Below are positions 14,731 through 49,214 of a stretch of DNA of 64,000 bases, piece after piece. A model generated the notes under the pieces. It saw nothing but the letters and a program-made list of their open reading frames with translations. It ran no database searches and was not told where the DNA came from. Source of the DNA: a virus. Its lineage: Duplodnaviria; Caudoviricetes. The position numbers were made by a program, and so were the translations under genes. The stretch covers positions 32,001 to 96,000 of IMG/VR virus record IMGVR_UViG_3300020577_007160. The stretch is one strand, 5' to 3'. The stretch's first letter is position 1, and every line of letters begins with the position of its first letter.

Positions 14731-14783
14731 GAACGTAGGAACTTGATTAAAATGAAAATGTCCTATTTCAAATAGGACATTTT
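14731..14783 (-). promoter_or_regulatory. Terminator (14755-14783) plus motif A (14731-14752)
   Basis: aaaatgtcctattt-c-aaataggacatttt; GAACGT-N11-TAAAA. Confidence 0.75.
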
Positions 14784-14808
14784 ACAAAAACACTACCAAC
14801 AAAATAAA

Positions 14809-15348
14809 TCAAATTTTCTTATTATTCATTTTTCTACAATAAGAATATATTGTTTCCATGATATCTGGAATATCAGATTCCATCATTAAAGAATATCTTG
14901 GATATATAGTTCCTTCTATGGGGTCTGAAGTTAATCCTGTTCTCCAGATTGTTTTTCCTCCCATTTTCTTAATAACATTTTTTCCTGACCCAGAATAAGA
15001 ATCTGACCAAAGAATAGCAACGACAACACACTTTTCATCAGCTTTAATAGTTATCACTCTGTCCTTTGAATCTAAATAAGGATCTTCACCTTTCCAACCA
15101 GGATGAGGAACACCACCTTCTGGATAACGCATATGTTCACCATATGATTTCCGAAAAACAACATGTCCTCGCTTATTTCTAGCAGGAATTAAGTCATCAA
15201 CTTCATATCCCAATTCTAATATCTTTTTATAATAAATATTCTTCTTCACTAATAAGAATAATTGTTTTGAACTCATTATTGGTGAATCAGAAGATTCACC
15301 TAGAACACTTTCTTCTAATCTTGATATTCTTCTTTCGATTGAATTCAT
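14809..15348 (-). CDS. Leader-family protein (cassette cargo)
   Basis: N-terminus MNSIERRISRLEESVLGES; motif B upstream. Confidence 0.8.
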   Translation of the reverse strand: MNSIERRISRLEESVLGESSDSPIMSSKQLFLLVKKNIYYKKILELGYEVDDLIPARNKRGHVVFRKSYGEHMRYPEGGVPHPGWKGEDPYLDSKDRVITIKADEKCVVVAILWSDSYSGSGKNVIKKMGGKTIWRTGLTSDPIEGTIYPRYSLMMESDIPDIMETIYSYCRKMNNKKI

Positions 15349-15367
15349 TTGATTTTCCTTTTATTTT

Positions 15368-15400
15368 GTTGAATTGAAAACTATATAACTAATATATATA
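15368..15400 (-). promoter_or_regulatory. Motif B putative late promoter (AGTTATATAGTTTTCAATTCAAC on - strand)
   Basis: 23-bp sequence repeated upstream of leader-family genes. Confidence 0.7.
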
Positions 15401-15410
15401 CATTGTTGAT

Positions 15411-15683
15411 TCAGATCTCTTTATATCTTACCTTAAAAATTGAATCCTTGAAACCAATATATTCATTCATTCTAGTGCGAACTACCCAATCACCAATTTT
15501 GATTGAATAAACTCCATAAATATTAGAATTAGAATTTTGAATTCTCAATTCTGGAAAATTGGAATATACGAACGGCAACTTTCCGTGTTTTCGTTCCCAT
15601 TCTTGAAATATAAGAGTTTCACCATTCCACGGTAATGCTTCTACCTTTTCATTGGTTTCAATATCTAAATACATCATAATCAA
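15411..15683 (-). CDS. Hypothetical phage protein
   Basis: VEALPWNG...GDWVVR...FKVRY pattern common in small phage proteins. Confidence 0.65.
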   Translation of the reverse strand: MIMMYLDIETNEKVEALPWNGETLIFQEWERKHGKLPFVYSNFPELRIQNSNSNIYGVYSIKIGDWVVRTRMNEYIGFKDSIFKVRYKEI

Positions 15684-16564: not shown

Positions 16565-16595
16565 AATTTTAAAGTAAAATAAAAGGAAATAGAAC

Positions 16596-17055: not shown

Positions 17056-17066
17056 TTAAAATGTTC

Positions 17067-17459
17067 CTACCAATTTCTGTGAGTCATATCTGCATCCGCA
17101 GGTTCTAATTCAGAAGCATCAATAGGAAAAGTTTTAGACCCAATTTTTACAATGGGACTTCCACTTTTATGGAAACTAACAATTTTTCCTCGATCACCAG
17201 TATCATGGATTATAACCTCATCCCCTAATTCAAATTCATAGCCATCATCTGGCCAATCATTTGAGGATTCTCTTATACCAATCTTTCTTTCGAGATTTGA
17301 AATCCTCTTTTCTAAGAGAGAATTATTAGAAGGAAGTTCCTGTTCAATATCTCGCAAAAATTCTGATACATCTAACATTTTAATTCCTTTTATTTGATTT
17401 AATAAAAGGGGATTAAAACTTGTTAAAAATTCTAATCCCCTGCAAAGAACGATTTTCAA
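17067..17459 (-). CDS. Leader-family protein with SH3/KOW-like C-terminus (true start probably MLDVSEF)
   Basis: SLLEKRISNLERKIGIRES followed by FELGDEVII..TGDRGKIV. Confidence 0.65.
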   Translation of the reverse strand: MKIVLCRGLEFLTSFNPLLLNQIKGIKMLDVSEFLRDIEQELPSNNSLLEKRISNLERKIGIRESSNDWPDDGYEFELGDEVIIHDTGDRGKIVSFHKSGSPIVKIGSKTFPIDASELEPADADMTHRNW

Positions 17460-17470
17460 TACTATTAAAT

Positions 17471-18334: not shown

Positions 18335-18354
18335 TTTTCCTCTAATCTAAATTA

Positions 18355-19147: not shown

Positions 19148-19239
19148 GGGTAACTATCAATATTTAGAAATAGTTTACCCATATAACTCTATGGATTCTG
19201 CTACTGTAACAAATATTATCTAACCATAAATAAATTATT

Positions 19240-22549: not shown

Positions 22550-22554
22550 AAATA

Positions 22555-22595: not shown

Positions 22596-23393
22596 TCAGG
22601 ATATTGCTAAAGAATCTTCATTCAAATTAAATACGGTTTTCATCACATGCTTGATTGTTTTTTCGAATTTCCAAACAATATTGGAATCGAAGTCAAGAAT
22701 ACGCCCAAGAACAACCATGGGAATATAACCCTCTTTCATATTTCGTTGGCGTTTCAACGACTCACGATACGTGTTAAACTTGTCACCAGTTTCAGGACTA
22801 GGTTCAACCAGTTCCTGAAAGAAATAAGTAATTCCTGGCAACTTTTCTTCGTATTTTTCAAGATACGAAAGAGCAGTTTCTACAAATATCTTTGTTGATA
22901 TTTCGTTCTCGCAGGAATGGGAATGAAGATAATAATCGAACGTTCCCAAACTTCCAGAGTCTTCCTCAGAGGAATCAGAACCAATACTGGTTGATTCCAA
23001 CATTGTTACGTTGCGAGAATCATCACGCACGATTGACGCACGAATTTTATCGGAAACGAAATTAATAAGAACTGAGCGCAAAGATGTGAAACGCAATTCT
23101 TCTGGATCATTCACCATCACGTCATCCATATTGGACAGGTTGGAAAACGCTTTTAGATAGAGTTCCTGCATCGCATCTTCATATGAGAGAATTCGATTCT
23201 CCATACGATGTGCTTGTTTGGCCAAGAAAGAGGAGTTTGTTGAAACAAAATTCGAGAACATTGATGCTGCATTCATCGTTGATCCTATAAGAAAATTTGG
23301 AAAGAGTGAATTTTTAGAACTTCCACAAGAAATTCTTGGACTAACTTCGCGCTTTTTCCAATACGAAGCAAATTTATTTTTGCAAAACCACAA
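22596..23393 (-). CDS. ECF-like RNA polymerase sigma factor (start probably MNAASMF)
   Basis: Region 2 pattern LAKQAHR...EDAMQELYLKAF...LRSVLINFVSDKIR. Confidence 0.6.
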   Translation of the reverse strand: MWFCKNKFASYWKKREVSPRISCGSSKNSLFPNFLIGSTMNAASMFSNFVSTNSSFLAKQAHRMENRILSYEDAMQELYLKAFSNLSNMDDVMVNDPEELRFTSLRSVLINFVSDKIRASIVRDDSRNVTMLESTSIGSDSSEEDSGSLGTFDYYLHSHSCENEISTKIFVETALSYLEKYEEKLPGITYFFQELVEPSPETGDKFNTYRESLKRQRNMKEGYIPMVVLGRILDFDSNIVWKFEKTIKHVMKTVFNLNEDSLAIS

Positions 23394-25074: not shown

Positions 25075-25085
25075 CTTTACTAAAA

Positions 25086-25136
25086 GAACGTCTAATGGTC
25101 TATAAAAAGAAAATGCCTATCGATCGATAGGCATTT
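25086..25136 (-). promoter_or_regulatory. Terminator (25111-25136) plus motif A (25086-25107)
   Basis: aaatgcctatcgatcgataggcattt; GAACGT-N11-TAAAA. Confidence 0.75.
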
Positions 25137-25171
25137 AAATAAATATATACTAATTTAGTTAGTATTTCAAA

Positions 25172-25537
25172 TCAAAGAAAGAACTCATCATCTTCATAAT
25201 GAAATCTAGAATTCGTACCTTCTATAACAGAAAATACAAAATTTTCTAAATAATAATTTAATTTTCCAACTTGACTAGAAGTTAATCTTAAATCAGAATT
25301 TCTCTCTGATTGGTACTTTAAATATTTCCAAAAAGAAGCAAGATATTCTTTTTGATCCTCATCCGCCAACTTTAAAAATTCAATTTTATGTTTAACTGTT
25401 AGACTTTGATGCTCTGCTACTAACCAACTTAATACTTTATTTAAAGTAGTTGTGTAACTTGATTCTTTGACCCCTACTTTTCTTTCAAGTTTCTCTAATC
25501 TCTCCATGAGAGATAAAGACGATCTTCTGTTGGTCAT
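25172..25537 (-). CDS. Leader-family protein
   Basis: MTNRRSSLSLMERLEKLERKVGVKES. Confidence 0.8.
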   Translation of the reverse strand: MTNRRSSLSLMERLEKLERKVGVKESSYTTTLNKVLSWLVAEHQSLTVKHKIEFLKLADEDQKEYLASFWKYLKYQSERNSDLRLTSSQVGKLNYYLENFVFSVIEGTNSRFHYEDDEFFL

Positions 25538-25582
25538 TGTTGACTCTTTCTAATATATTGTTGAATTGAAAACTATATAACT
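25476..25582 (-). repeat. Motif B plus leader-coding repeat, type II copy
   Basis: About 107 bp near-identical to 29867-29973 and similar to 31448-31552. Confidence 0.85.
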
Positions 25583-25598
25583 AATATATATAGAATCA

Positions 25599-26982: not shown

Positions 26983-28044
26983 TTAGATTTTTAGATCTTC
27001 ATAGATTTCTAACTCAGGTAATGTTCCAGTTTCTAAAAACGTCTCCATTTTCTTCTTTGATATTCTTGCATTCTTAGAATTGAATCCTGATAACAATCTT
27101 TCTTTGCGATAATCCCAGAATATCTTGAATTCAATTCCTGGCCATGGATCCTGTTCTACCTGACGAATTTCCTCAGCCTGACGATCCAGGTAATATCCAA
27201 GATATCTTCCACTCCGCTTACGAAACAGTTTCTTGAATGAACATAATGCAGTTTCCATACGAAAATAATTCACGTCATGGGCAACATCTGGATATCTTCT
27301 TTTGATTTCCCTGATGATACCATCAGCCTTATTTTGAAGATAGGAAACTTTATCATTGTCATACTTGATATCCCTATAGAACTTCTTATTATCCTCATAG
27401 TAGCGACTTGTCCATTCATCCTTCCCAACCACTAGGCACATGCCATTCCGATGAGAGTCGCTGCCAGAATCCTCAAATAACAGACTCGTGGGTTCTATTG
27501 GTAATCCAACGCATTCCGCTAATGCCTGGCAGTAATACCAGGACATGTATCTGCCGAATTTATGAAATTTGGTCTTTGCAAAATTAAATACTTTCTTATA
27601 ATTCTCTTTTTTATCTTGGGAAGAACATAAAGCCATGAACGTATCCAATTGGTTTTCCCCAACAGCTTCTTTATATGATAAATACATTTCTGGTAAATAA
27701 CCCTTTGCGTAACGAGTATCAGTTTGATAGCGTAAATGATTATAATTTTTAGTATTCCAAATCATTAATCTTTCAATATTAACATTCTCATAATCTGGTA
27801 TCTCATTCCAAATACAATATGATGTTACAGGTTGATATGTACAACCATAAAGAAATACAATCCAAAATTTTTGTTCTATGTTGTATTCCTGCCGATCAAA
27901 AATGTAATTTAATAACGCTATTGGTGGGTCAACATCAGTGGTTCTCAATCCCCAAACAAACCATCGTATGAATGCTTCTATTCTATTTTCTCTGAGTCGA
28001 AAATCTAAACCAGTTTCCATTCTTTTATCATTGTATTGAGGCAT
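26983..28044 (-). CDS. aGPT-Pplase2 family amino acid:DNA transferase (thymidine hypermodification)
   Basis: DVDP, FWIVFLYGCTY, QTDTRY, FGRYMSWYY, SHRNG, ETALCSFKK, RYLGYYLDRQ. Confidence 0.75.
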   Translation of the reverse strand: MPQYNDKRMETGLDFRLRENRIEAFIRWFVWGLRTTDVDPPIALLNYIFDRQEYNIEQKFWIVFLYGCTYQPVTSYCIWNEIPDYENVNIERLMIWNTKNYNHLRYQTDTRYAKGYLPEMYLSYKEAVGENQLDTFMALCSSQDKKENYKKVFNFAKTKFHKFGRYMSWYYCQALAECVGLPIEPTSLLFEDSGSDSHRNGMCLVVGKDEWTSRYYEDNKKFYRDIKYDNDKVSYLQNKADGIIREIKRRYPDVAHDVNYFRMETALCSFKKLFRKRSGRYLGYYLDRQAEEIRQVEQDPWPGIEFKIFWDYRKERLLSGFNSKNARISKKKMETFLETGTLPELEIYEDLKI

Positions 28045-28466
28045 TCATTAATTTGATCTAAAACAATATGAGCAATTTCATTGCCACTTATCCAAGCAGG
28101 ATCTTCAATACCATTATATTTCCCCTGAGAAAAACTAGCTAAAGATACTAATTTGTCAGTACATTCCGGGAAATCTTTTATCATATCTTCCTTGTGTCCA
28201 GGTATCATATAAAGAATCTTATCTGACCATTCAATCAATTCCTTTGTTACATGTTTTGATCGATGATCCTTGACCCCAATATGGATATCATAAGATTTTA
28301 ATGCTTCTCGAATTTTCTTTCCCATAGGAGACTTCTGACCAGAACATTTGAACTTTGTTCCTGCGGAATCTACTTTGTGATCCGTTCCTTTGAGCATAGC
28401 TTCTGCCATATAATGGGCTGCAGCAGAACGATTTTTGTTACCAGTACAAATCATTAAAATATTCAT
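28005..28466 (-). CDS. Low-molecular-weight PTP/ArsC-family phosphatase
   Basis: ILMICTGNKNRS (CX5R), DSAGT, IEDP. Confidence 0.9.
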   Translation of the reverse strand: MNILMICTGNKNRSAAAHYMAEAMLKGTDHKVDSAGTKFKCSGQKSPMGKKIREALKSYDIHIGVKDHRSKHVTKELIEWSDKILYMIPGHKEDMIKDFPECTDKLVSLASFSQGKYNGIEDPAWISGNEIAHIVLDQINECLNTMIKEWKLV

Positions 28467-29410
28467 AATCCTAAATCTTCCTTTTTTAATTTTCCTTCAG
28501 AAATTAGTTTGTCATAATTCGCCTTTGCAACTGGTCTGGAATTATGATAAATATTTGTCATTTGAAATATTTTATCAAGTTCATAATTATAGGGGTGAAA
28601 TTCCTGAAATCCATGTTCAGAAAATTCAGAAATTAATTCTTGAGGTGTTAATTGAAATTCAGAAAATACTGCTGATAAAAATCTGGAAGGATAGGATAAA
28701 GCATTATACATTTTATTGAGATCCCTTGACATTGTGAAATGTCGAAATTCAATTGTTTCTGTTTCAGAAAATACTTGCTTCAAATTGACTGCTTCTCTGA
28801 CAACAAGATGCCATAACAACTTGCCAGACTTGTCTTTTGCTGCATGAGCCTCATAAAATTCCTGAGGTGTTTTAGCCAACATCATTTTGGTAAAAACATT
28901 CTTTGGAACAACATAATGATGTGAACGCTTACGACGCTTATAACGTTCCCATGCACCTTTGTATTCTGCTTCAGAAGAATAATCAGATTTAATTGGAACT
29001 GGTATTGGTTCAATTAAATTATAAAGTTCTTTTCCATAAAATTGTGTGTATTTTGCTATTCGTTTTAAAGCGGGTAAATTGTTTTTCAATCCAGGTATAT
29101 GGATATGAACATGAAGATTCGTAGTGAAATTGAAATATTTGTCTCTATTGTTATCTTCTAAAATACCAAATGTATCATAAATACCTTTTACAATATCTAA
29201 TAACTTACTTGGAGTAGATGCTATTGATGTTTGGATTTCACCACCAAATTTATTAAATTCATGCTTTGGGTCATTTGCTGTTCCATTAACAGAATTCATT
29301 ATTGAACCATCTTTCGTACAGAACTTACTACCCTCTGGTAGTTTAGTACGAACATCAATATCCCCAATTTCGAGTTCACAACCCAAACTATAATTTGTTA
29401 AATCTAACAT
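28463..29410 (-). CDS. Putative amidoligase (COOH-NH2 ligase fold)
   Basis: GCELE, DGSI, GGEIQT, LHVHI, VNL, TIEFRHF. Confidence 0.75.
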   Translation of the reverse strand: MLDLTNYSLGCELEIGDIDVRTKLPEGSKFCTKDGSIMNSVNGTANDPKHEFNKFGGEIQTSIASTPSKLLDIVKGIYDTFGILEDNNRDKYFNFTTNLHVHIHIPGLKNNLPALKRIAKYTQFYGKELYNLIEPIPVPIKSDYSSEAEYKGAWERYKRRKRSHHYVVPKNVFTKMMLAKTPQEFYEAHAAKDKSGKLLWHLVVREAVNLKQVFSETETIEFRHFTMSRDLNKMYNALSYPSRFLSAVFSEFQLTPQELISEFSEHGFQEFHPYNYELDKIFQMTNIYHNSRPVAKANYDKLISEGKLKKEDLGL

Positions 29411-29444
29411 AATCCCTTTTGTATATTCTTTTAAGTTTTCAACA

Positions 29445-29496
29445 GAACGATTAAAACTTTATAAAAAATAAATGCCTATCACTAGATAGGCATTTA
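29445..29496 (-). promoter_or_regulatory. Terminator (29469-29496) plus motif A (29445-29466)
   Basis: taaatgcctatc-acta-gataggcattta; GAACGA-N11-TAAAA. Confidence 0.75.
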
Positions 29497-29520
29497 AATA
29501 CAAAACCAGAATATTAAAAT

Positions 29521-29928
29521 CTAAACATTAAATGGATATTTTTCAAGATCTATTTCTGCCAATTTTTTAAATTTTTGACCTTTGAAAAAGAATACACGAG
29601 GATCTTTAATTTTAGTTACACTAATGAATTTATTCACTGCTAAAATAAAAGATTTAAATTCCTTTGTATCCTGATTACCCTCATCATCCTCTTTACAAAA
29701 ATTCCATTTTTTAGATCCTTGAAGATCTCTATAAACACTATAAATTATATTTTTTGCCTCATCTATGTAACATATTCCAATATTTCCAAATAATAATTCA
29801 TCCCAATAAGTGTTGAAATGATACTTCCCAACATTACTTATTGTTTCTGTTATAAAGTCTTCATTCACTTTTCTTTCGAGTTTCTCTAGTCTCTCCACAA
29901 GAGATAAAGATGATCTTCTGTTGATCAT
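29521..29928 (-). CDS. Leader-family protein
   Basis: MINRRSSLSLVERLEKLERKVNED. Confidence 0.8.
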   Translation of the reverse strand: MINRRSSLSLVERLEKLERKVNEDFITETISNVGKYHFNTYWDELLFGNIGICYIDEAKNIIYSVYRDLQGSKKWNFCKEDDEGNQDTKEFKSFILAVNKFISVTKIKDPRVFFFKGQKFKKLAEIDLEKYPFNV

Positions 29929-29973
29929 TGTTGATTCTTTCTAAGATATTGTTGAATTGAAAACTATATAACT
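29867..29973 (-). repeat. Motif B plus leader-coding repeat, type II copy
   Basis: Near-identical to 25476-25582. Confidence 0.85.
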
Positions 29974-30007
29974 TAGTTCATAAATTATGAACAATCTTTT
30001 AAATCAC

Positions 30008-30712
30008 TTACAATCTAATATTCTGGTAATCAATACCAATATCAACCGAATAAGAAGAAACTAATGAAAAATCTGATTCAGATAATATATATAACTCTCC
30101 AGCATTTAACTGAATTAAATTCTCATTTATGCCAGACCTTTTAAAGACTTCCTGAGTAGAAGAAACAATAATAGAATCGTCACGCTGGCATGACCATGCT
30201 GGTCTTGTTGAATTCCGAAAAGAAAACATTTTACCATGTTTCCATAATCCTACCACAGCCATTGATGCTCTTGGAAACCGCTGGATTACATTGATTCCCT
30301 TTTGTAGGTAATTATGAATTATTTCAGCATCATTAGTTGTTACAGGTTCAATATCATATAACTCTTTCCAATATTTGGGATCTGCCTGAGTCAATACTCC
30401 GTTCATAGCAACGGAAAGATTATTGCCAATATCTATTGGTTGATTGTGTTCTAAGCCAGAAGTAGAATATCGAGAATGACCAATTAATGAAATTAATTCT
30501 GAAGACAATAAATCTTGTTTGATCGTAGAAAAATGTTTCTCTAAAAAAGATTTTCCATCGGTTGGCTCTATGAGAGTCTTAATTTTATTATCAAATAAAT
30601 AGGAAACACCCGTTGCATGTTTTCCACGTATGCTATTTTCTACTATAAAATTAGATATCAACTCAATATTATTGAGAGATGACTTTCCTTTGAAAGCTAA
30701 AATAGAACACAT
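30008..30712 (-). CDS. Class II (Ntn) glutamine amidotransferase
   Basis: N-terminal Cys (MCSI), RGKHATG, GHSRYST, NQP, MNGVL. Confidence 0.85.
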   Translation of the reverse strand: MCSILAFKGKSSLNNIELISNFIVENSIRGKHATGVSYLFDNKIKTLIEPTDGKSFLEKHFSTIKQDLLSSELISLIGHSRYSTSGLEHNQPIDIGNNLSVAMNGVLTQADPKYWKELYDIEPVTTNDAEIIHNYLQKGINVIQRFPRASMAVVGLWKHGKMFSFRNSTRPAWSCQRDDSIIVSSTQEVFKRSGINENLIQLNAGELYILSESDFSLVSSYSVDIGIDYQNIRL

Positions 30713-30785
30713 ATTATCAATAAATTAAATTTTAAATACAAATGAAAAATAACGCTCCAACAACTAGAACTGTAGCATAAATTTA

Positions 30786-30838
30786 GAACGTGAAATACTC
30801 TATAAAAATAAATATGCCCTTTGTATAAAGGGCATATT
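30786..30838 (-). promoter_or_regulatory. Terminator (30811-30838) plus motif A (30786-30807)
   Basis: aatatgcccttt-gtat-aaagggcatatt; GAACGT-N11-TAAAA. Confidence 0.75.
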
Positions 30839-30870
30839 AAACTTCAGAAATTCATTTCTATCAAATTGAA

Positions 30871-31509
30871 TCAAACAACTTCAAAAGATATAAATTCATG
30901 TTTTAATAAATTTTTTCTTTTAAGATCCTCTGCTTCTTTTATAGAATTCAAAAGATAAGAATTACCATAAGAACCCTGATCACTTAATTCAAAATTAAAA
31001 AGAAGAAATTCCTCCTCAGAAAAACTATCAGAAAAATCTCTAAAACGTATATCTCTTAATAAATAAATCTGTTCTTCTTCCATTAACTTTGCATTTATGG
31101 CATCTATAAAGGATTCTGAAGTAAGATTACCAAAATCTTCATCATCAAAAATAGTGTCTATGATCTTGTCTACTCTTTTAAGATATTTTTTTAAAACCAA
31201 ATCATTTTTAATAGGTAAAATTTTATTTGGTCTAATTGGGCTAATACCATCTATTTTCAATATTCCAGCATTCATTAATTTATAATAATAGTCTTCCGCT
31301 TCCTTTTTTGTTTCAAAAAATTTTATAAGATCTGCAGGACTATCTTCAGCTTGTGGGCGGACTCGATAAAGGAATAATTTACAATAATTATTCCCATAAT
31401 AAAAAGTTGCATAAGTATATTTTACCTTATTATTTTCACGAATATCTACTTTTCTTTCGAGTCTACTTAGTCTCTCTGTAAGAGAGAGAGTTGTTCTTCT
31501 ATTAATCAT
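30871..31509 (-). CDS. Leader-family protein
   Basis: MINRRTTLSLTERLSRLERKVDIREN; motif B at 31530-31552. Confidence 0.8.
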   Translation of the reverse strand: MINRRTTLSLTERLSRLERKVDIRENNKVKYTYATFYYGNNYCKLFLYRVRPQAEDSPADLIKFFETKKEAEDYYYKLMNAGILKIDGISPIRPNKILPIKNDLVLKKYLKRVDKIIDTIFDDEDFGNLTSESFIDAINAKLMEEEQIYLLRDIRFRDFSDSFSEEEFLLFNFELSDQGSYGNSYLLNSIKEAEDLKRKNLLKHEFISFEVV

Positions 31510-31557
31510 TGTTGATTCTTTCTACTATTGTTGAATTGAAAACTATATAACTCTCTT

Positions 31558-33513
31558 TCATAAACTATTCAGAAATTTTATAAAATCTGCTATACCATAA
31601 TATATATTGTAACAATTTTCTTCATAAAGTTTCTTCCTCGTATTTGAATGACTTTTCAAATAAGGATGTACCAAATCTTCAAAATCTATTATAAATGACT
31701 TATTTCGAGTAGAATTTTTCGTTAATGCTCTCGCAGGTCTCTGAACGCTTTTAACATGAGAAGATCCCCCTGCTAAAAGAATTATTCCGTCAAGACTTGG
31801 AATATCTCTTCCTTCATCGAATATAGATGAACCAATTAAAACTCGTATTCTCTTTTCATTCACTTCTTTCATTAAATCAAAATTATCATTATAATAAATA
31901 TAATTTTGATTTGTTTCTTCATCAATTTTAATTTCTTTTATCTGGTTTTGATAACGAAGATAAAGTTCCTTACTATATAAGGAAATGTTGGTATTTCCCC
32001 CATAAGAAAATACAACATCCTCTATCATATTTAACATTTTTAAAATTTCTTTACCATGAGAAATGCGAGTCACAGAAACTAAAACTGATAAATTCTTTGG
32101 ATAACAATATCGAATAATATGGGTCGCTACTGTATTCCTATTGAAATTATTAACTATAAATCTATCATAAACCTTACTATAATTTTTAATAAAAAATTTC
32201 TGCTTATTAAAATCATAAGGAATAAAGAAAACATTAGGTTCTGAAATAACTCCGAGATCAATAAAATATTGAGGTGATATTTTTACAATAGTAGAATGAA
32301 GGCATCCAATGATGGCTGCGTCTTTTGGGGACTTATAAGGATCATCTCTATTTTCAAGAGGAGTGCCAGAGAATCCAAGCAATAAATCTAGATCATTAAA
32401 GTCAGAAACAATTGATTTATAAGAAGTTGCGGAAAGATGATGGCAATTATGAACTAATATCCCTTCTGCGAAATAATTATTGTTTCCTTCAACTTCGATA
32501 TTGTAGACATAGTCACAAGAAAAATCTAAAATTTCTTCAACACTTTCTGGATAACACTTGTTTACATAAGGTTCTTTGTGTAATATTCTATGTTCCCTAA
32601 TGCAAACAGCTGAATGAAAAACATTCAAATTTTTAGCAGAAATATAAGACCTACTATTGGAATCATAAATAGGGTGTTCTGGAGTACACATAAATTCAGA
32701 ACCATTACTAAATCGAATCTTAATCAAATTAGTTTTTAATTCGGATTTAAAGATTCTAAGTATTTTCTTTAATTCTATTTTTTTAGAATTATGATTAAAG
32801 GATTTTACAAAATCTCCGGTCTTCAAAGTTGAAATAGGTTTTCCATCTACTAAAGTATCACCAGGAAAACACTCATCAACAATTATACCGCCAACAGTAG
32901 AAAAAAATTCTTTATTAGCACCTTTTTTAAAAGAATTATATAGGGTATCAATAGTACAGACAATTATTTGTTTATCATAGTCTTTCTGAGAATCCCCTAA
33001 TAAACCTACATTTTGAATACCTCTTGATAAAAGTCTTTTAGCAGTTTGTTCCATCAGCCCAACTTCTTCTTCCAAAATAAGAATCTTTTTCTCAGAAGAA
33101 ACATTATCTTGATATAGTTTGGATACTCCACAGAAAATCTCAGTTTTGCCAGTACGTGTTGGAAGATCTACTATGCCCCGTGTTCTCAACATGCATTTTC
33201 TTATAGAGGAAATCTGATCATAACGAAGTGTTATTCCACTTAATAAATTTTCTGGGATTTCGAAATTAAAATTTTTTACTATAATATTATCTTTAATAGA
33301 TAAAGGTAAAGTGCCTAATTTTGATAGAACATAGGGTACTAATCCAGTAAAGAACTTACAATGGTCTTCATGGGTATATAAAAATTCCTTGTATAAAGTT
33401 ATACCACTAGGATATTCAATATAAGATAAAGACAATATATCTTTTAATTTAAAGAATTCTTCCTCATTATAGTTCTTTACATAAGTAAAATTAGACTCCT
33501 TAATAAACAACAT
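31558..33513 (-). CDS. SF2 (UvsW-like) helicase containing an intein
   Basis: PTRTGKT, IVDE|CHH after intein removal, FSGTP, EGRDIP, QRPARAL. Confidence 0.9.
   Translation of the reverse strand: MLFIKESNFTYVKNYNEEEFFKLKDILSLSYIEYPSGITLYKEFLYTHEDHCKFFTGLVPYVLSKLGTLPLSIKDNIIVKNFNFEIPENLLSGITLRYDQISSIRKCMLRTRGIVDLPTRTGKTEIFCGVSKLYQDNVSSEKKILILEEEVGLMEQTAKRLLSRGIQNVGLLGDSQKDYDKQIIVCTIDTLYNSFKKGANKEFFSTVGGIIVDECFPGDTLVDGKPISTLKTGDFVKSFNHNSKKIELKKILRIFKSELKTNLIKIRFSNGSEFMCTPEHPIYDSNSRSYISAKNLNVFHSAVCIREHRILHKEPYVNKCYPESVEEILDFSCDYVYNIEVEGNNNYFAEGILVHNCHHLSATSYKSIVSDFNDLDLLLGFSGTPLENRDDPYKSPKDAAIIGCLHSTIVKISPQYFIDLGVISEPNVFFIPYDFNKQKFFIKNYSKVYDRFIVNNFNRNTVATHIIRYCYPKNLSVLVSVTRISHGKEILKMLNMIEDVVFSYGGNTNISLYSKELYLRYQNQIKEIKIDEETNQNYIYYNDNFDLMKEVNEKRIRVLIGSSIFDEGRDIPSLDGIILLAGGSSHVKSVQRPARALTKNSTRNKSFIIDFEDLVHPYLKSHSNTRKKLYEENCYNIYYGIADFIKFLNSL
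32446..32871 (-). mobile_element. Mini-intein (142 aa) in helicase motif II
   Basis: CFPGDTLV...CTPEHP...VYNIEVEGNNNYFAEGILVHN followed by Cys. Confidence 0.92.
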
Positions 33514-33873: not shown

Positions 33874-33909
33874 AAAATAAAAATAATTAAAAATTCACGA
33901 TACAAACAT

Positions 33910-33958
33910 GAACGTTTTAATTTTTATAAAAAGAAAATGCCATCCGAGGATGGCATTT
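33910..33958 (-). promoter_or_regulatory. Terminator (33935-33958) plus motif A (33910-33931)
   Basis: aaatgccatcc-ga-ggatggcattt; GAACGT-N11-TAAAA. Confidence 0.75.
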
Positions 33959-33981
33959 AAATTGAACTATGATTATGGTAA

Positions 33982-34491
33982 TTACCAGGTAGTTGATCCA
34001 TTTACTTTAGATAAGTAAAATGCAAAACCTAAATATTCCCCTGTATAATTATCTGATTTATATTTTTCTCCATAAACATGAGAACGTCTTCCATACCAAT
34101 TACCATCGTAATCCTGTGCTAATCCATCTTCTTCGTTTTCAACAGGATCTACATAGATGTCATAACCTTCATAGGCAAAATCTTTTCCTTCATTACTGAG
34201 CTTGTCAGCGAGTTCTTCTAAATAAGAAAAAGAAACAAACCCATATTGACCAAGACCAAATGTATCAATGAATTCTTGGGTGTTGTCTGTGTAATTCTGA
34301 GGATTCAACCCAAACACTTCAAAAGCACTTTCTGGTGCTGATTTCAGTTTTTTACGAACAATAGAAACAAGGCTCGATAAACTTGCACCAGTGCTACGCT
34401 CTTCCCTAACATTTCTATTATTTCTATTAACACCAACTTTTCTTTCCAGTCTTTGTAATCTCTCATTGAGAGATAATTTTCTTTTAATCAT
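33982..34491 (-). CDS. Leader-family protein
   Basis: MIKRKLSLNERLQRLERKVG...VREE; motif B variant at 34512-34532. Confidence 0.8.
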   Translation of the reverse strand: MIKRKLSLNERLQRLERKVGVNRNNRNVREERSTGASLSSLVSIVRKKLKSAPESAFEVFGLNPQNYTDNTQEFIDTFGLGQYGFVSFSYLEELADKLSNEGKDFAYEGYDIYVDPVENEEDGLAQDYDGNWYGRRSHVYGEKYKSDNYTGEYLGFAFYLSKVNGSTTW

Positions 34492-34556
34492 TGTTGTTCT
34501 CCTTTTATGAAAATTGTTAAAACTATATAACTGATTAAAATATATATATTAACTAA

Positions 34557-35867
34557 TTAACCTTTCTCAATGTATTTAACGTTTGTCATATCTTTTATAT
34601 AATCGGGAGAAAACCCATTACCATCCAAACCAGGATTTTCACTTACAAATAGAACTCTAACTTCTTCTGGAATAAAATCAAGAGTTTTTAAATTGTTATC
34701 TTGAACACTCAATAAATCTAATTTTTTATCTTTAATCCCCTTCAAAGAAATTAAAAGATTTGATTCAAATAATAAACTTCCACCACCCACTTTTGGGCAA
34801 TGTTCTAAATTTCTTAATTTATTATTTGAAGCATTAACACCCCAACAAGTTTCTGGACATCCATAAAGAGTATCTAAATTATTATAACTAATATTCAATC
34901 TCCCCTCAATAATTCCAAATCTATCTAAACCAAATTTTGAATAAAGATACTCATGAACTGACTTATAAGACCCTAGTTTCTCCTTGAGATTAACATCCCC
35001 TGTGACGTTTATTATGTTTCCATCTAATTCAACCTTACGGCATTTAAACGTAGATGCGAGTTTTAATTCAACAGAATCTGCTAAATTAATTGGTAAATCC
35101 TCCCAAGATTCTATTGGATTTCCATCCCAGATCAATTCCCCTTTAACATTTTTAAGATCTTCTGTGTGATATTTAAAGTCTTCGATGTTATTATTGGATA
35201 TATTTAAATCCCCACCAATTTTCTTTGGCATTCCCCAAAGACTTTCTAAATTATTAAAAGAAACGTCAAAATCCCCAGTAACTTCTAAAATACATTTAAT
35301 TTTCAAAGATTTTAAATACTCGTTAATAGTTTTAAAATTCTTCAATTGACCTGAAAAATTAACATCTCCTCTGATTATTACATCCCTATTAATTAGGGTA
35401 ATTTCTCCATTAACAAATTTTTGTAAAGAATTCTTAGCATTAATATCATCAAAATTATCTTTTAAAAATTGTTTTATACCATTAAATGGTTTACCATTTA
35501 CTTTTGTCAGATAAAACAATCCCCTTTCATAGGGGGGATAATAATATTTTTTATTTCTAAATTCTCTTATTTTTAATTTTGGAGTAAAGTCACAACAAAA
35601 TCCAGAATAAGAAAATGTACCTAGTACATCCTTAATATCATTAAAAATAGTATGGCCAATAAATCTTGGGTCATCAGAATTCAACATCTCTACAATATCA
35701 TCCCCCGTAAGACGGTCATCAATATCTATTGAATCAACTTTCTCTGGGAGAGATTTATCTCTTAAATATTTTTCTATGTCAGGGATAGAGGTGAGAGATT
35801 CAGAAATAATGCCCAATTCTCTCTCAAGAATCGAAAGTCTTTCAACAATTGATTTGTTAGATTTCAT
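34557..35867 (-). CDS. Leader-family protein with leucine-rich-repeat-like region
   Basis: SIVERLSILERELGIISES; repeats such as DVSFNNLESLWGMP, NISYNNLDTLYGCP, NASNNKLRNLEHCP. Confidence 0.75.
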   Translation of the reverse strand: MKSNKSIVERLSILERELGIISESLTSIPDIEKYLRDKSLPEKVDSIDIDDRLTGDDIVEMLNSDDPRFIGHTIFNDIKDVLGTFSYSGFCCDFTPKLKIREFRNKKYYYPPYERGLFYLTKVNGKPFNGIKQFLKDNFDDINAKNSLQKFVNGEITLINRDVIIRGDVNFSGQLKNFKTINEYLKSLKIKCILEVTGDFDVSFNNLESLWGMPKKIGGDLNISNNNIEDFKYHTEDLKNVKGELIWDGNPIESWEDLPINLADSVELKLASTFKCRKVELDGNIINVTGDVNLKEKLGSYKSVHEYLYSKFGLDRFGIIEGRLNISYNNLDTLYGCPETCWGVNASNNKLRNLEHCPKVGGGSLLFESNLLISLKGIKDKKLDLLSVQDNNLKTLDFIPEEVRVLFVSENPGLDGNGFSPDYIKDMTNVKYIEKG

Positions 35868-35930
35868 CCAATTTTCTCAGTTAAAATATATAAAATTTTA
35901 TAACTAAAATTTTAAAATAAACATCAAAAT

Positions 35931-39194: not shown

Positions 39195-40529
39195 TTAAAA
39201 ACGAATATCCTTACATTCTGTTTTACTTAAAACATAATCCTCCGTAAACCCTCTTCCGTTTAATCCTGGATTTTTCATTACATTTGCCATATAATTGATT
39301 TTCTTTGGTATAAAATCTAGAGATTTTAATTTATTATCCATAACATCGAAATCCCATATTATATCGTCTTTAATACCCTCTAAAGAAATTAAAGAATTTG
39401 AATAAAATTCTAATGTTCCATGAACCCCAACTTCAGGACAATACTCTAAATTTCGAAGATTATTATTACTCGCATTTATCGAAAGACATTTTTTAGGACA
39501 TCCATAAAGAGATTCTAAATTATTAGAACTAATATTTATTTGATGAGAAATAGTTCCAAACCCTTCTAAACCAAATTCAGATTTAAGATAATCATGAACA
39601 GATTTATAAGAACCTAATTTACCAGAAAGATAAACATTACCAAAAGCATTTATTAAATCACCATCTAACTCAACTCTTTTACACTTAAAAAGAAAAGTTA
39701 ATTTTAACTCTAAATTATTAATAAATTTAACTGGCAGAAATTCCCAATCATCAATAGGGTTATTATTAAATATAAATTTTCCACCAACATTTTCAAGCTG
39801 TTTATCACAATATCTAAAACCAGAAATTCTATTATTGGAGATATCCAAATCTCCATATATTTCATAAGGCATTCCATAAAGAGATTCTAAATTATTGTCA
39901 GAAAAATCAACATTACCAGTGACTTTTGAAATCTCTTTAATTTTCAAGGATTTTAAAAAATCTTTAATACTTTTAAAATTTCCTAGTTTTCCTGAAAGAT
40001 CCAGATCCCCGTTAATTACAATACTTCGCTTTTTTAAAGCAACTTCACCATCCACATATTTTTCTAGAAAATTTAAAACATTAATACTATCAAAATTTAA
40101 TTTTAAAAATTGTTCAATACTATTGAATTGTTTTTTATCTACAGAGGTAAGATAAAATACTCCGTACTCATCCCAAGGAGTATGAACAAATTTTTTATTT
40201 CTAAGTTCCCGAACATTCAATTTTCCAGAAGTAAAATCACAACAAAATCCAGAATAAACAAAAGAACCCAATACACCTTGAATATCATAAAATCCATCGT
40301 GATCAATAAATCTTGGGTCGTCTAAATCAAGATATTTTAAAAGATCCCGCCCTGAATCAACAAATCTTTGGGGATTAATTTCTAATTCTTTTATCTTCGC
40401 AGGTACTGATTTCTGAATTAAATATTCTTCTACCTCAGATTTAGAATTAAAAGATTCCTGAATTATTCCTAGTTCTTTTTCTAAGAAAAGGATTCTATCT
40501 AAAATAGAATTTGATTTAATAGTTTTCAT
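39195..40529 (-). CDS. Leader-family LRR-like protein, paralog of 34557..35867
   Basis: SILDRILFLEKELGIIQES; shared DDPRFI.H, YSGFCCDFT, KLGSYKSVH, NNL.SLYGCP blocks. Confidence 0.78.
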   Translation of the reverse strand: MKTIKSNSILDRILFLEKELGIIQESFNSKSEVEEYLIQKSVPAKIKELEINPQRFVDSGRDLLKYLDLDDPRFIDHDGFYDIQGVLGSFVYSGFCCDFTSGKLNVRELRNKKFVHTPWDEYGVFYLTSVDKKQFNSIEQFLKLNFDSINVLNFLEKYVDGEVALKKRSIVINGDLDLSGKLGNFKSIKDFLKSLKIKEISKVTGNVDFSDNNLESLYGMPYEIYGDLDISNNRISGFRYCDKQLENVGGKFIFNNNPIDDWEFLPVKFINNLELKLTFLFKCKRVELDGDLINAFGNVYLSGKLGSYKSVHDYLKSEFGLEGFGTISHQINISSNNLESLYGCPKKCLSINASNNNLRNLEYCPEVGVHGTLEFYSNSLISLEGIKDDIIWDFDVMDNKLKSLDFIPKKINYMANVMKNPGLNGRGFTEDYVLSKTECKDIRF

Positions 40530-40557
40530 TTTATAAATTTAATTTTGAAAAATTTAT

Positions 40558-41673
40558 TTATATAACCTGCTTTGATGGTGAGGAAGACCTAACTTTAATA
40601 AACAACTTACTTATTTTTTGATAAAATAAATCAGTCTTATTATAATAATTAGACTCAAGATACGGTACAATATAAGAAACAAATTCACTAGACTTCTTCC
40701 ACAATAAATATAAAATAGGGATTTCAAAATAAATCGTAGAATCCTGAGAAAGTTTTAGAAAACTTGAATTAATTAAACTTGTTTTAAATTTGTTCCAAAT
40801 ATCAATCAAAATATCAACATTTGGATTTTCTAATGAATTGATAATATCAATACAATTCTTGTAATTCGTGAAACAACTATCAAAGACTTCCAAAGAATCA
40901 AATTGAACAGGAGGACAATAAATATCATCCCGATCCTGCAGGTTTTCTTGCAAGAGTTTTTTCATTTTATCCCAATGAGGTTCATAAATATGAAAAGACA
41001 TTGAATTATGAAGATATGTTCCTAATCCTACCCCTAATTGATTCGCAATAAACTCCTGAAGGAATGTAAACGCGAAATAATTCGTTCCACTGTATCCCCA
41101 CCATTCGTCGTTACTCCTGTTATCAACAGTCATATATAATTTATTTATGTTGTCCTCTGGATCCCGACGAACTAAAAAATGAATCATATTATTGCATGCT
41201 ATATCCTTACCAGGAGTAGAATCTACTGGAGGATAAGAAATCACCAAAAAGGCACGTCTTGAATATAAATCTTTTTTCAGAATTTCAATAACAACTTTTA
41301 ATTGATCTATTGGCAATCCAGCATCGTTGGGATAACTCCGAATTCGTTTTCCATAACCAGATCTCCAGACTGGGGATTCATCGTCAGGATTATCTGAGAA
41401 CTCAATGGCACGAGGTAGAAATGGTGACAAGTACTTTACTTCATTTGATCCCCCCAATACCCACACTGCTTCCGCAATCTGAGCAATTAGATTCTCCTTC
41501 CTGCTGTGAAAACCAATGAGCCTATTCTTTGGGTCAATGGCAGCTATTCCGACTTGTAGTAACTCTTTGGTGCGTCCGTAACGGGAATCAATTTCAGGTG
41601 CAATATCAAGGTATTCGCTCAAGGTCTTGATTGCTGAGGTCAATCCCTTTGTGTAAATTAAAGATGGTAACAT
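40558..41673 (-). CDS. Thymidylate-synthase-fold enzyme, probably dUMP hydroxymethylase
   Basis: SRRA, DIACN, RSNDEWWG, Asn in GTNYF (dUMP specificity), SFHIYE. Confidence 0.75.
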   Translation of the reverse strand: MLPSLIYTKGLTSAIKTLSEYLDIAPEIDSRYGRTKELLQVGIAAIDPKNRLIGFHSRKENLIAQIAEAVWVLGGSNEVKYLSPFLPRAIEFSDNPDDESPVWRSGYGKRIRSYPNDAGLPIDQLKVVIEILKKDLYSRRAFLVISYPPVDSTPGKDIACNNMIHFLVRRDPEDNINKLYMTVDNRSNDEWWGYSGTNYFAFTFLQEFIANQLGVGLGTYLHNSMSFHIYEPHWDKMKKLLQENLQDRDDIYCPPVQFDSLEVFDSCFTNYKNCIDIINSLENPNVDILIDIWNKFKTSLINSSFLKLSQDSTIYFEIPILYLLWKKSSEFVSYIVPYLESNYYNKTDLFYQKISKLFIKVRSSSPSKQVI

Positions 41674-44618: not shown

Positions 44619-44640
44619 GAACGTTTCAGATTGAATTAAG
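44619..44640 (-). promoter_or_regulatory. Motif A variant upstream of SSB
   Basis: GAACGT-ttcagattgaa-TTAAG; spacer nearly identical to the 48673 copy. Confidence 0.55.
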
Positions 44641-46456: not shown

Positions 46457-47405
46457 AAAATAATTTATTAATATTTTGACTCAACATTGCAGAAGAAAAA
46501 CTATAAAATTCATATCTTTGAATAATATCATTTATCTCATTTTGAGAATAGTCTAATCTTTCTAAAATTTTAGTTTTTATTCTTGTGCGGGAATCAAGAT
46601 CAAAATTTACTTTCGATAAGTCTACAAGTTCAAGATTGAGTTTCAAACGAGAAATAACTTCATCAGTTCCTAACAATTTACCCTTTCCCTTTTGCATAGT
46701 AGACCAAGACTGAATGGATTCGATGGTAGGGGTGGATAACTCAGAAAGCATCTTCTTAACCGATACCTGCCCGAATCCCTTCAATACGGAAGGGATATTA
46801 TCATGACCACCCAAAATAGATAAATATAAGCAATGATGTTTCGGGGATTCTACTTCGAGAACTTCTCGAAAGTTTTCAAGAGAGATATATTCTTGTTTTG
46901 TTGCTCGAAAAATATCAACATCATCTTTGACTAATTGACACCAGTCATAATCATCACTCACAAGAATCTTCTTCTTGTTTTCTAAATTCATACGAGAAAT
47001 GAAACCCGCTAAGTCATCTGCTTCATAAGAGTTTTCCCACAAAACTTTAATACCTAATTTTGGTAAAATTGATTTAACTAAATCTTTTTGTTCCTTATAA
47101 AATTCACCCATACTACAACCAAGAATCTCGTCATGTTGATTCCACGTATCATCGGGTTTTTCTGGTCTTAATTTATAATTTTCATCTATTGCTAGTCGAA
47201 AACTCTTTCCCGTAGAAAGAAGAAAATAAACCTCAACAATATTATGTTGAGATAAGGAATCCAATATTCCGAATAAAGAATTCAATACACCATAAAGTAT
47301 TCCAGTTCTTACTCCGTCTTTTGTCCTAAATTCTCTTAATTTAGGGACATAAATACAACGATGAAGATACATATCACCATCAATTAAGAGAACTCCCTGC
47401 TTCAT
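46443..47405 (-). CDS. 5'-3' exonuclease / flap endonuclease
   Basis: LLIDG, YEADDLAG, VSDDYDWCQL, DNIP...GFG. Confidence 0.9.
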   Translation of the reverse strand: MKQGVLLIDGDMYLHRCIYVPKLREFRTKDGVRTGILYGVLNSLFGILDSLSQHNIVEVYFLLSTGKSFRLAIDENYKLRPEKPDDTWNQHDEILGCSMGEFYKEQKDLVKSILPKLGIKVLWENSYEADDLAGFISRMNLENKKKILVSDDYDWCQLVKDDVDIFRATKQEYISLENFREVLEVESPKHHCLYLSILGGHDNIPSVLKGFGQVSVKKMLSELSTPTIESIQSWSTMQKGKGKLLGTDEVISRLKLNLELVDLSKVNFDLDSRTRIKTKILERLDYSQNEINDIIQRYEFYSFSSAMLSQNINKLFYDRI

Positions 47406-48453
47406 TTATGCATCCCTTCCCGTACAATAATAAGTCTTCAACATCAGATTTAATATCTATATTCTTTAAATAATGCTCAAATAATTCATTATTTGTCAAT
47501 GAAGTAAATTTAACAACATCCTTTTGTTTATCTTTTTTAATTGAAACTAATTTCTCGGTTCTGTACCCAAGAAACCTTTTGAGTTCAATCTGAACTTCAT
47601 TTATTTCTTCTACAGTATTAGCAGCATAATAAACATAAGAATTATCAGACAATTTATCAAGATCATATCTTGAATAAACTCTAACTAACTTAGGAGAAAT
47701 TTTATTAGGTATTAAAGTGAAATCTAAAGTTTCTGAATCTATGATATAGATTCCACGTTGAATCGCTAATTCTGGTTCATCAATATTTACTTGAAGTAAT
47801 GATCCTGGGAATACTATATTCCCTAATATTTGAGGTATGTGGTGGTGGCCATTAAAAACTAATCCAAAAGATTTAACCTGAGCAGTTAAATCAACATATT
47901 CGGATTCTTCTAAAGATTGATTAGATTTTTTAAAATACTTATAATATCCACCTTTAAGAGATAAATGCCCAAAAAATATAGACTTCTCTTTGTTGGTTAA
48001 TATAGATTCAGGCAAAGAAAACTTATCTTTACTAAAGTAATAGGGACAAAATACTAAGTTTTCTGATTTTAATAAATCTTTTACTACAATGGTATTTGGG
48101 TAATCATTTAAGAAATCAATTATAGATACTTCTCTATTTTCTGAAATAAAATCATGATTCCCTAATAAGATATAATGCACCGCATTAATAGAATTACAAG
48201 ATTCACATAATCGTTTTAACATTGAAAATGATGTTGTCACCGTATGAGAATCCAAAGAATTCATTGAATGATAAATATCCCCACCACAAACAACAATATC
48301 GGGTTTATGGTGTTCTATTTGTTCAATGACAAATTCTAATGCTTCACAAGTATGGTCTAATAAATTAGAGTGACCATTTTTAGATATCTTAAAAAAGTCA
48401 CCATTATATCGAAAATGAATATCAGTATAAAAAAGTATTTTCATCAATATCAA
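47380..48453 (-). CDS. SbcD/Mre11/gp47-like nuclease
   Basis: TDIH, GGDIYH, GNHD, GH, NGHHH, PGS. Confidence 0.92.
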   Translation of the reverse strand: MILMKILFYTDIHFRYNGDFFKISKNGHSNLLDHTCEALEFVIEQIEHHKPDIVVCGGDIYHSMNSLDSHTVTTSFSMLKRLCESCNSINAVHYILLGNHDFISENREVSIIDFLNDYPNTIVVKDLLKSENLVFCPYYFSKDKFSLPESILTNKEKSIFFGHLSLKGGYYKYFKKSNQSLEESEYVDLTAQVKSFGLVFNGHHHIPQILGNIVFPGSLLQVNIDEPELAIQRGIYIIDSETLDFTLIPNKISPKLVRVYSRYDLDKLSDNSYVYYAANTVEEINEVQIELKRFLGYRTEKLVSIKKDKQKDVVKFTSLTNNELFEHYLKNIDIKSDVEDLLLYGKGCINEAGSSLN

Positions 48454-48672
48454 AATTATTTAGTAACACTTCGTAAACATAATCTAAATCAAATCCAAGA
48501 GATTTAATAAATCCAAAAACAGTATTCAAAGAATAACACAAAGAATTTGGAATACTAAAATACCATTGATATTCTTCAAAAGAGTAATAACTAATATTTA
48601 GTATATTAAATAACTTAATTAGTTGTTCGGTATTCAAATAATATGTTGTATTAAATATACTCATGTTCCTAT

Positions 48673-48719
48673 GAACGTTTCAGATTGATTAAAATAAAAA
48701 TGCCCACCAATGGTGGGCA
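48673..48719 (-). promoter_or_regulatory. Terminator (48701-48719) plus motif A (48673-48694)
   Basis: tgcccacca-a-tggtgggca; GAACGT-N11-TAAAA. Confidence 0.75.
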
Positions 48720-48743
48720 AATCTAGAGAAGATATTCTGAGAA

Positions 48744-49163
48744 TTAACGAATCAAATCCATATTCAACGGAACATCATAATTATTTTTAGTGTAGTGATT
48801 ACGGGTAGTTTTTATTCCGTATTGTATGGATCGAACATCAATAGTATCCCTCGTTACTGTTCCATCTGAATCTACCCAAATATAACCAAAAACCCTAGGA
48901 CTTCCATTTCCTGTATTGAAAACATTCTCACAAGAAACTCTGTATTTTGAAACTCGAGAATTTGAAGACTCTTCCGAAAAGTTAATAGTTCCTAAGTATT
49001 CTGCAAATCTTATATTATTACCATTAATAATCTCGTCTTTGAAATATTCATAAAGTTCTTCCCCACATTCCCCCCTTGTACAACGGTACGCACGTGAAGT
49101 ACTAGATTCTTTAACAAGAACTTTTTCTTCTAACCTTAATATTCTTCTTTCGATTGAATTCAT
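48744..49163 (-). CDS. Leader-family protein
   Basis: MNSIERRILRLEEKVLVKES. Confidence 0.8.
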   Translation of the reverse strand: MNSIERRILRLEEKVLVKESSTSRAYRCTRGECGEELYEYFKDEIINGNNIRFAEYLGTINFSEESSNSRVSKYRVSCENVFNTGNGSPRVFGYIWVDSDGTVTRDTIDVRSIQYGIKTTRNHYTKNNYDVPLNMDLIR

Positions 49164-49214
49164 TTGATTTTCCTTTTATTAGTTGAATTGAAAACTATAC
49201 AACTAATATATATA
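49117..49214 (-). repeat. Motif B plus leader-coding repeat, type I copy
   Basis: About 98 bp near-identical to 15302-15400. Confidence 0.85.

Follow-up and report, generated by a model that had tools for sequence, protein, structure and literature searches.

Single-gene units with a shared leader peptide and variable cargo in the genome of an uncultured phage

Why should a tract of about 100 bp recur, nearly unchanged, in front of unrelated genes that are scattered through the gene array of a phage? We considered this question for a window of 64,000 nucleotides, bases 32001-96000 of the 179,512-bp virus record IMGVR_UViG_3300020577_007160 (coordinates are those of the window unless marked genome). 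GC content is ~30%, and the minus strand carries 298 of the 308 open reading frame (ORF) calls, which are crude longest-ORF calls. The original prediction, made from the window's sequence, had described six loci as self-contained cassettes in which a promoter-like motif (motif B) and a short leader precede a cargo gene, and a hairpin and a second motif (motif A) follow it. We propose, with a probability of about 0.6, that these loci are autonomous single-gene transcription units of a family of at least 25 leader genes, and that recombination in their flanks exchanges the cargo.

The six loci have one layout, read on the minus strand: motif B, an ATG 34-44 nt on, an ORF of 121-212 aa, a 10-13 bp hairpin with a T-run, and CGTTC[TA] ~20 nt past the hairpin. 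A 23-mer form of motif B occurs in four exact copies and one copy with a single mismatch, all on the minus strand, and in none of 100 shuffles. Terminator-like sites number 26, compared with 7.0 ± 2.7 in shuffles. Thus, the common layout is confirmed and is far from chance.

In cassette 1 (14730..15400), motif B lies at 15368-15390, the ORF at 14809-15348 (179 aa, with what we term a type I leader), the hairpin at 14755-14783 and CGTTCT at 14730-14735. Cassette 2 (25085..25592) has motif B at 25560-25582, an ORF at 25172-25537 (121 aa, type II leader), a hairpin at 25111-25136 and CGTTCT at 25085-25090. The corresponding elements of cassette 3 (29444..29973) are at 29951-29973, 29521-29928 (135 aa, type II leader), 29469-29496 and 29444-29449 (CGTTCT), and those of cassette 4 (30785..31552) at 31530-31552, 30871-31509 (212 aa, type II leader), 30811-30838 and 30785-30790 (CGTTCT). 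Cassette 5 (33909..34532) carries a shorter variant of motif B, AGTTATATAGTTTT, at 34519-34532, followed by an ORF at 33982-34491 (169 aa, type II leader), a hairpin at 33935-33958 and CGTTCA at 33909-33914. Cassette 6 (48672..49214) has the mismatched 23-mer at 49182-49204, an ORF at 48744-49163 (139 aa, type I leader), a hairpin at 48701-48719 and CGTTCA at 48672-48677. All six are on the minus strand, and a seventh copy of motif B is found outside the window.

Near-identical promoter and leader tracts had been reported between distant cassettes, and self-BLAST reproduces them: 15302-15400 and 49117-49214 are 92.9% identical over 99 bp, and 25476-25582 matches 29867-29973 at 92.5% over 107 bp and 31446-31552 at 81-84%. 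In alignments the homology opens at motif B and ends abruptly at about codon 20, in agreement with the claim that identity stops where the leader does. The 5′ flank (motif B and leader) and the 3′ flank (hairpin and motif A) have no repeat in common. Thus, simple excision between direct repeats, or as mini-circles, is not expected. Target-site duplications were also considered and set aside: TATATATT is on both sides of cassette 2 only, and there is no consistent pattern.

The cargos are mutually unrelated. No Pfam or PHROG match, and no nuclease, transposase or recombinase domain, was identified in any of the six. For the cassette 1 cargo no relative was found among 5.8 billion proteins. The sole relative of the cassette 4 cargo, P0031 (36% over the C-terminal half), has a type I leader and lies in another genomic context. 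Look-alike searches with the leader and with the cassette 4 body gave no usable match, and neither a near-identity search of the phage collection nor motif and peptide-pattern scans of IMG/VR gave any match. Eleven motif matches in JGI metagenome contigs were dismissed as chance, as none has a leader downstream.

A hidden Markov model (HMM) was built from the six cassette N-termini and used to find further members of the leader family. It matches proteins of this genome and of relatives with E values from 1e-8 to 1e-4. The family consists of 22 intact and three frame-broken genes, with alignment confined to ~20-25 aa and unrelated bodies behind it. The set is therefore larger than the six loci first described: the genome has eight complete units, and its leader genes number at least 25. 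The leader is an amphipathic helix of ~20 aa with the pattern (S/N)(L/I)xER(I/L)xxLExK(V/I), usually followed by G(I/V)xES. Within 14 aa past the helix, [LIV]-x-E is present in 19 of the 22 genes and in 21.9% of control windows (P=2e-10, with independence weakened by paralogy). Where the leaders of cassettes 2 and 3 differ, most of the changes are synonymous, which indicates selection on the peptide. Many leader genes lack motif B, and eight of these are among neck, sheath and tail genes. The idea that the leader serves as a handle for recombination therefore holds in part, in that it is not only a handle: it is conserved mainly as a functional peptide across at least 25 paralogues, many of them without motif B.

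Examples of leader genes without motif B are found on the minus strand at 50104..52069, where 51662-52069 encodes 135 aa, 50496-50777 encodes 93 aa, and the frame of 50104-50482 is broken at a (TC)6 run in the leader. Another leader gene (17067..17378, minus strand) occupies a syntenic slot between a 287-aa and a 70-aa gene. Its leader is kept, and its body is unrelated to the bodies in relatives L006 and L007, which are homologous to each other.

The other two frame-broken genes lie outside the window (genome 107032-106544 and 106525-106108). In all three, an ATG-led N-terminus is out of frame with leader and body at (CT)5 or (TC)6 in Ser-Leu codons. Programmed frameshifting was rejected because the shifts differ, +1 in two genes and -1 in one. 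Change in dinucleotide-repeat length, whether by phase variation, in pseudogenes or through assembly error, fits better. In a cassette of L006 (L006:7277-7849) leader and body are in one frame with a TAA stop directly past the leader, due to nonsense mutation, readthrough or error. Type II leaders also encode an RNA or DNA hairpin, TCTCTC-loop-GAGAGA, at codons 7-13, with the variable residue in the loop (25490-25515, 29880-29905, 31465-31490, 34455-34475 and 50735-50760; fold z -1.7 to -3.1). One paralogue, gene 50496-50777, keeps a variant pairing, UCUUUCU/GGAAAGA.

The core of motif B, GTTATATAG, or GTTATA[TA], lies 37-44 nt ahead of the ATG of leader genes, and GTTATATA is the second most enriched intergenic word. 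Of about 16 intergenic GTTATA[TA] sites, 11 precede leader genes. These include two paralogues on the minus strand, a 436-aa gene (34557..35904), which abuts the cassette 5 promoter and has GTTATAA, resembling motif B, 37 nt upstream of the ATG, and a 444-aa gene (39195..40566) with GTTATAT, also 37 nt before the ATG. Judged from these positions, motif B marks a predicted regulon of leader genes. A conserved sigma-70-type -35 element was sought upstream and rejected, as none is present. The simplest reading is that motif B is a -10-only promoter-like element of another class, perhaps late. In relatives with ~75% DnaB identity the core of the motif is kept and its tail differs. The 23-mer is identical in four copies in this genome but different in relatives, a pattern that would fit recent duplication or gene conversion.

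Motif A has a wider distribution. When its sites are aligned, TTTTA emerges as a further element that spans -17 to -13, and 36 of the 38 sites have A at -13; the motif is thus bipartite, TTTTA-N11-aCGTTCT. We identified 38 intergenic sites on the minus strand and at most two on the plus strand, mostly 30-53 nt ahead of start codons; the structural module at 90-150 kb has none. For sigma-70-type sites there is no enrichment (115, compared with 106.7 ± 12.9). A hairpin of -8 kcal/mol or stronger is directly upstream of 18 of the 38 sites, and its T-run doubles as the TTTTA element. These composites come after small ORFs of 48-216 aa, with only seven of the 18 after leader genes, and they are also found in relatives, including at sites that are empty there. 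Motif A and its hairpin had been described as cassette parts; they are instead terminator-promoter punctuation used genome-wide. Motif A is probably a general promoter-like signal, possibly the promoter class of early or middle genes. Either motif, A or B, might be read by a sigma-like protein of 265 aa (22596..23393, minus strand), conserved in relatives, with matches to Sigma70_r2 (18 bits, E=3.6e-4) and to a PHROG sigma factor (E=3e-4) that are both below curated cut-offs.

Do these units vary between related phages? Relatives were found through DnaB homologues, on contigs at 90%, 74-77% and 46% identity. At the junction of DnaB and the HD gene, where this genome has cassette 2, L006, L027 and L028 have a gap of 56-59 nt with only ACGTTCT, and L025 (DnaB 90% identical) has only a hairpin, 20 nt past the stop. 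Relative to L025, the insertion of cassette 2 lies past the DnaB stop and ahead of the hairpin. In L007 this junction is occupied by three small, unrelated ORFs, and in L009 by one. Relatives likewise have an empty cassette 1 site, with a hairpin and ACGTTCA in L007 and a 26-nt gap in L031-L033. Relatives have units of their own elsewhere (L006 at 7244, L007 at 40, and a two-gene unit before DnaB in L026). Thus, the comparison with related genomes that had been suggested as a check shows that units differ at precise intergenic sites, some being empty and some having other content; units are gained and lost there between relatives. At the empty site of L006, the 5′ untranslated region (UTR) of the HD gene (L006:10960-10997) holds AATTCAACAAAATAA, the same 15-mer as in the 5′UTR of cassette 1 (15349-15385), which may be the scar of a lost cassette or chance.

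The claim that cassettes split functionally linked genes is borne out for cassette 2, which separates DnaB from the HD/primase pair. Cassette 3 does separate a glutamine amidotransferase from an amidoligase, the latter being a weak Amidoligase_2 match. Insertion inside core operons does not apply to cassettes 3 and 4. Both are embedded in an accessory DNA-hypermodification island (26983..30712, minus strand) that relatives lack at that site: ResIII directly abuts DnaB in L006 and L009, and here the two are 4.6 kb apart, with cassettes 3 and 4 and the island between them. The island encodes a glutamine amidotransferase (PHROG E=8e-11), the amidoligase-like protein (E=0.028), a low-molecular-weight phosphatase (E=3e-15) and an amino acid:DNA transferase (E=2e-21).

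The evidence for exchange of cargo comes from a near-identical strain, strain S, represented by two contigs of one other sample that cover 49168-37321 and 32348-25563. Long blocks are 100% identical to the window. In cassette 6, the 64 nt of 5′UTR and leader have no mismatches. The body (49104-48772) has 102 mismatches in 333 nt and no gaps, with 65% amino acid identity, synonymous divergence (dS) of 0.86 and nonsynonymous divergence (dN) of 0.27. The next 202 nt, which run from the last nine codons through the 3′UTR, hairpin and motif A into the start of the neighbouring gene, have two mismatches, and the following 2.4 kb are 7.5% diverged. The flanks together, with 2 mismatches in 266 nt, differ from the body at P=4e-27 and from the next 2.4 kb at P=1e-6. 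This points to an old cargo allele between young flanks, the outcome expected if crossovers or gene conversion took place in the flanks. Over 21.8 kb, an independent assembly matches the window at 100% identity; it breaks off at the repeat, 5 nt ahead of the cassette 6 ATG. Strain S has no 436-aa leader gene, and its polymerase is directly followed by cassette 5. To recover cassette 2 in strain S, the HD protein was looked up by exact match, which returned no record.

The phage belongs to an uncultured lineage distantly related to Thornevirus. By capsid protein, its nearest relatives in culture belong to Thornevirus, namely Listeria LIS04 and Bacillus SP-15 (39% identity); hosts of these nearest cultured phages are low-GC Gram-positive bacteria. 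It is not a T4-like myovirus; it has DnaB and a family A polymerase. We identified T4-type head genes, including a Peptidase_S77 protein of the gp21 family (E=1.8e-18; head maturation protease by PHROG match, E=7e-34) and a Gp23 capsid protein (E=1e-52). Genes for replication and recombination encode DnaB, an HD phosphohydrolase, a primase-like protein, ligase, dUTPase, family A polymerase, ResIII helicase, a gp32-like SSB, thymidylate synthase, RecA and SbcCD. The last two had been noted in the original prediction and are indeed encoded. No Phage_integrase or Resolvase match was found in the genome in searches that included positive controls, in line with its description of an integrase-free system.

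The following sequence of events would account for these features. Inside the co-directional replication array, leader genes would use their own motif B promoter-like element, of a different, late class. Each unit would end at its hairpin, and the next resident gene would restart from motif A. The leader is most likely, by analogy with T4, a propeptide or capsid-targeting tag cut by the gp21-type prohead protease, and the cargos would be delivered through the virion. The ~100 bp of promoter, UTR and leader and the ~60-200 bp of hairpin-motif A composite would be the only conserved DNA around a fast-evolving cargo. As conserved DNA is present only at the flanks, general homologous recombination (RecA and SbcCD, with no integrase) would tend to resolve there. 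The outcomes would be replacement of cargo alleles, insertion or loss of units at gene ends, and duplicated promoter-leader modules fused to new bodies. A more ambitious version seems possible to us, although we would not favour it: the module may be a portable adaptor to express, package and inject, with the cleavable tag recruiting newly fused ORFs to the capsid. The genome would then encode at least 25 fast-turnover virion effectors, some toggled by CT-repeat slippage, and the cassettes of the replication module would be the newest.

Several points weigh against exchange of tagged cargo through the flanks. A cargo replacement bounded by the flanks was seen in a single case. Cassettes 3 and 4 (the former on contig L045) are 100% identical in strain S, as is the hypermodification island, and so are uninformative. 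Cassette 5 diverged together with a larger block, its homologue in strain S (P0033) being 64% identical in protein sequence and in the same position. Mosaic breakpoints are also found inside ResIII, DNA polymerase and SbcC. Thus, recombination is general, and the flanks are preferred or surviving, rather than exclusive, crossover sites; the claim of homologous recombination in conserved flanks is supported by the cassette 6 swap and does not stand as something specific to cassettes. Motif B is not clearly present ahead of the main structural operons, which makes late timing a guess. The leader HMM and both motifs have no match in Listeria phage LIS04, the closest cultured relative examined, over its first 100 kb. 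The link between the leader and the T4 capsid-targeting sequence is by analogy only, and the two peptides are not known to be alike.

What else could make the units look alike? They may be regulatory insulation and nothing more. The likeness would then come from a shared need for a promoter, 5′UTR, tag and terminator, with gain, loss and divergence by ordinary recombination for which the flanks are not special. The generic nature of motif A and its hairpin (38 sites and 18 composites, seven of them after leader genes), the conservation of the leader as a peptide in genes without motif B, and the breakpoints inside ordinary genes all fit this. Purifying selection on promoter, tag and terminator could alone keep the flanks similar, but it explains the unchanged 3′UTR spacer and synonymous sites of cassette 6 less well, given a body with dS of 0.86 and neighbours that are 7.5% diverged. 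Also against insulation alone are promoter-leader modules that are 92-93% identical within the genome, on unrelated bodies and with sharp ends, and copies that are more alike within this genome than to those in relatives. We therefore consider insulation alone unlikely, although it is the most credible of the rivals to exchange through the flanks.

A second possibility is that the conserved 5′ region acts mainly as RNA or DNA, for example as a translational operator or hairpin switch, with the peptide as a by-product. The hairpin in type II leaders, the variant pairing in gene 50496-50777, a 5′UTR that is more conserved than the leader codons, and the CT-repeat runs in the hairpin arm that break the frame in three genes are consistent with such a role. 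However, type I leaders lack the hairpin (z -0.4 to -1.7), the peptide pattern holds over 22 genes with different nucleotide sequences and in relatives, and the enrichment of [LIV]-x-E is a signal at the protein level, which together make this improbable. The units could also be selfish elements that mobilise themselves, of the homing-endonuclease or transposon kind, as they are present or absent at precise intergenic sites and, as inteins in neighbouring genes demonstrate, this phage has active homing elements. We regard this as very improbable, since no nuclease, transposase or recombinase domain is present in the six unrelated cargos, the genome lacks integrase and resolvase genes, and no consistent target-site duplication or terminal inverted repeats were seen at the junctions. 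Autonomous leader-gene units whose cargo is exchanged by recombination in the flanks remain our preferred reading.

The inteins are in the ResIII helicase (31558-33513) and the family A DNA polymerase (35931-38471). The strain S polymerase has no intein, and to either side of the intein site its identity to the polymerase here is only 80-87%, which may be due to co-conversion around a homing site. The Gp23-type capsid protein (genome 130356-128956) starts MNFLNE-AIEGG, with L-x-E at residues 4-6, and thus has either a very short propeptide or a miscalled start. Repeats were identified elsewhere in the genome. Large tail-fibre-like genes contain four paralogous segments of ~0.9-1 kb that are 77-81% identical (genome 96709-113978, partly in the window from 64709 onward), and a perfect 116-bp direct repeat has copies 2.6 kb apart (genome 153809-153924 and 156465-156580). 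A 77-bp 'direct terminal repeat' (genome 1-77 and 179436-179512) was rejected as a true terminal repeat, as it is too short and looks like assembly overlap; most likely it is the overlap of a circular or circularly permuted assembly.

If our reading is true, it shows how a large lytic phage may acquire and test accessory genes without disturbing essential operons. It would also link regulatory-cassette shuffling and capsid-targeted hypervariable internal proteins, so far separate in T4-type phages. The 25-member tagged family would be a list of candidate injected effectors, possibly with anti-defence functions, and the tag might be of use for bringing foreign proteins into the capsids of a phage group other than T4. 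Together with the sigma-like gene, the two promoter-like motifs give a first outline of regulation in this lineage.

The exchange of cargo between conserved flanks is not new as a concept, having been described as modular shuffling by promoter-early stem-loop (PeSL) cassettes of T4-type phages (Arbiol et al., 2010, PMC2839356; Comeau et al., 2014, PMC4122927). PeSLs are terminator-promoter composites, present in many copies in intergenic DNA beside small ORFan genes, and indels and replacements between close phages end in these motifs (PMC2839356, PMC4122927). The units described here are like PeSLs in the composite terminator-promoter, the association with ORFans and the general, integrase-free recombination. 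As with PeSLs, inserted genes would bring or keep their own promoter and terminator and neighbours would stay expressed, and differences end in the motifs (cassette 6 in strain S and cassette 2 compared with L025, the only informative cases). In PeSLs the promoter matches the early sigma-70 consensus of the host, and one motif on either side of a gene allows its excision as a mini-circle. Here, by contrast, the promoter, TTTTA-N11-aCGTTCT, is not sigma-70-like, the 5′ flank (promoter B and coding leader) differs from the 3′ flank (hairpin and promoter A), so that no mini-circle excision is expected, and an N-terminal coding segment is part of the recombining homology.

In T4, gp21 cuts after L/I-X-E, and the internal proteins have only the capsid-targeting sequence in common (PMC9026906, PMC3012670). 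The leader genes resemble those for IPI, IPII, IPIII and Alt in encoding unrelated, fast-evolving small proteins with a common short N-terminal peptide and an L/I-x-E site, in a genome that also encodes a gp21-family protease and a gp23-family capsid protein. They differ in having at least 25 members, compared with a handful in T4, in a ~20-aa helix of different sequence, and in that eight members form insulated units with a predicted dedicated promoter. In the giant phages phiKZ, 201phi2-1 and SPN3US, a diverged gp21-type protease cuts many of the proteins inside the head after Glu, at the motif S/A-x-E (PMC9026906, PMC5694885). In that literature these ejection and inner-body proteins are not described with one portable leader and a dedicated promoter. 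Integrons also have swappable single-gene units that are served by a promoter and independent of the array. The phage differs from integrons in lacking an integrase and attC-like sites, and in that its units form no array but are dispersed, each with a predicted promoter of its own. We classify the system as a variant of both known T4 kinds, one that combines PeSL-type shuffling with the logic of a capsid-targeting tag.

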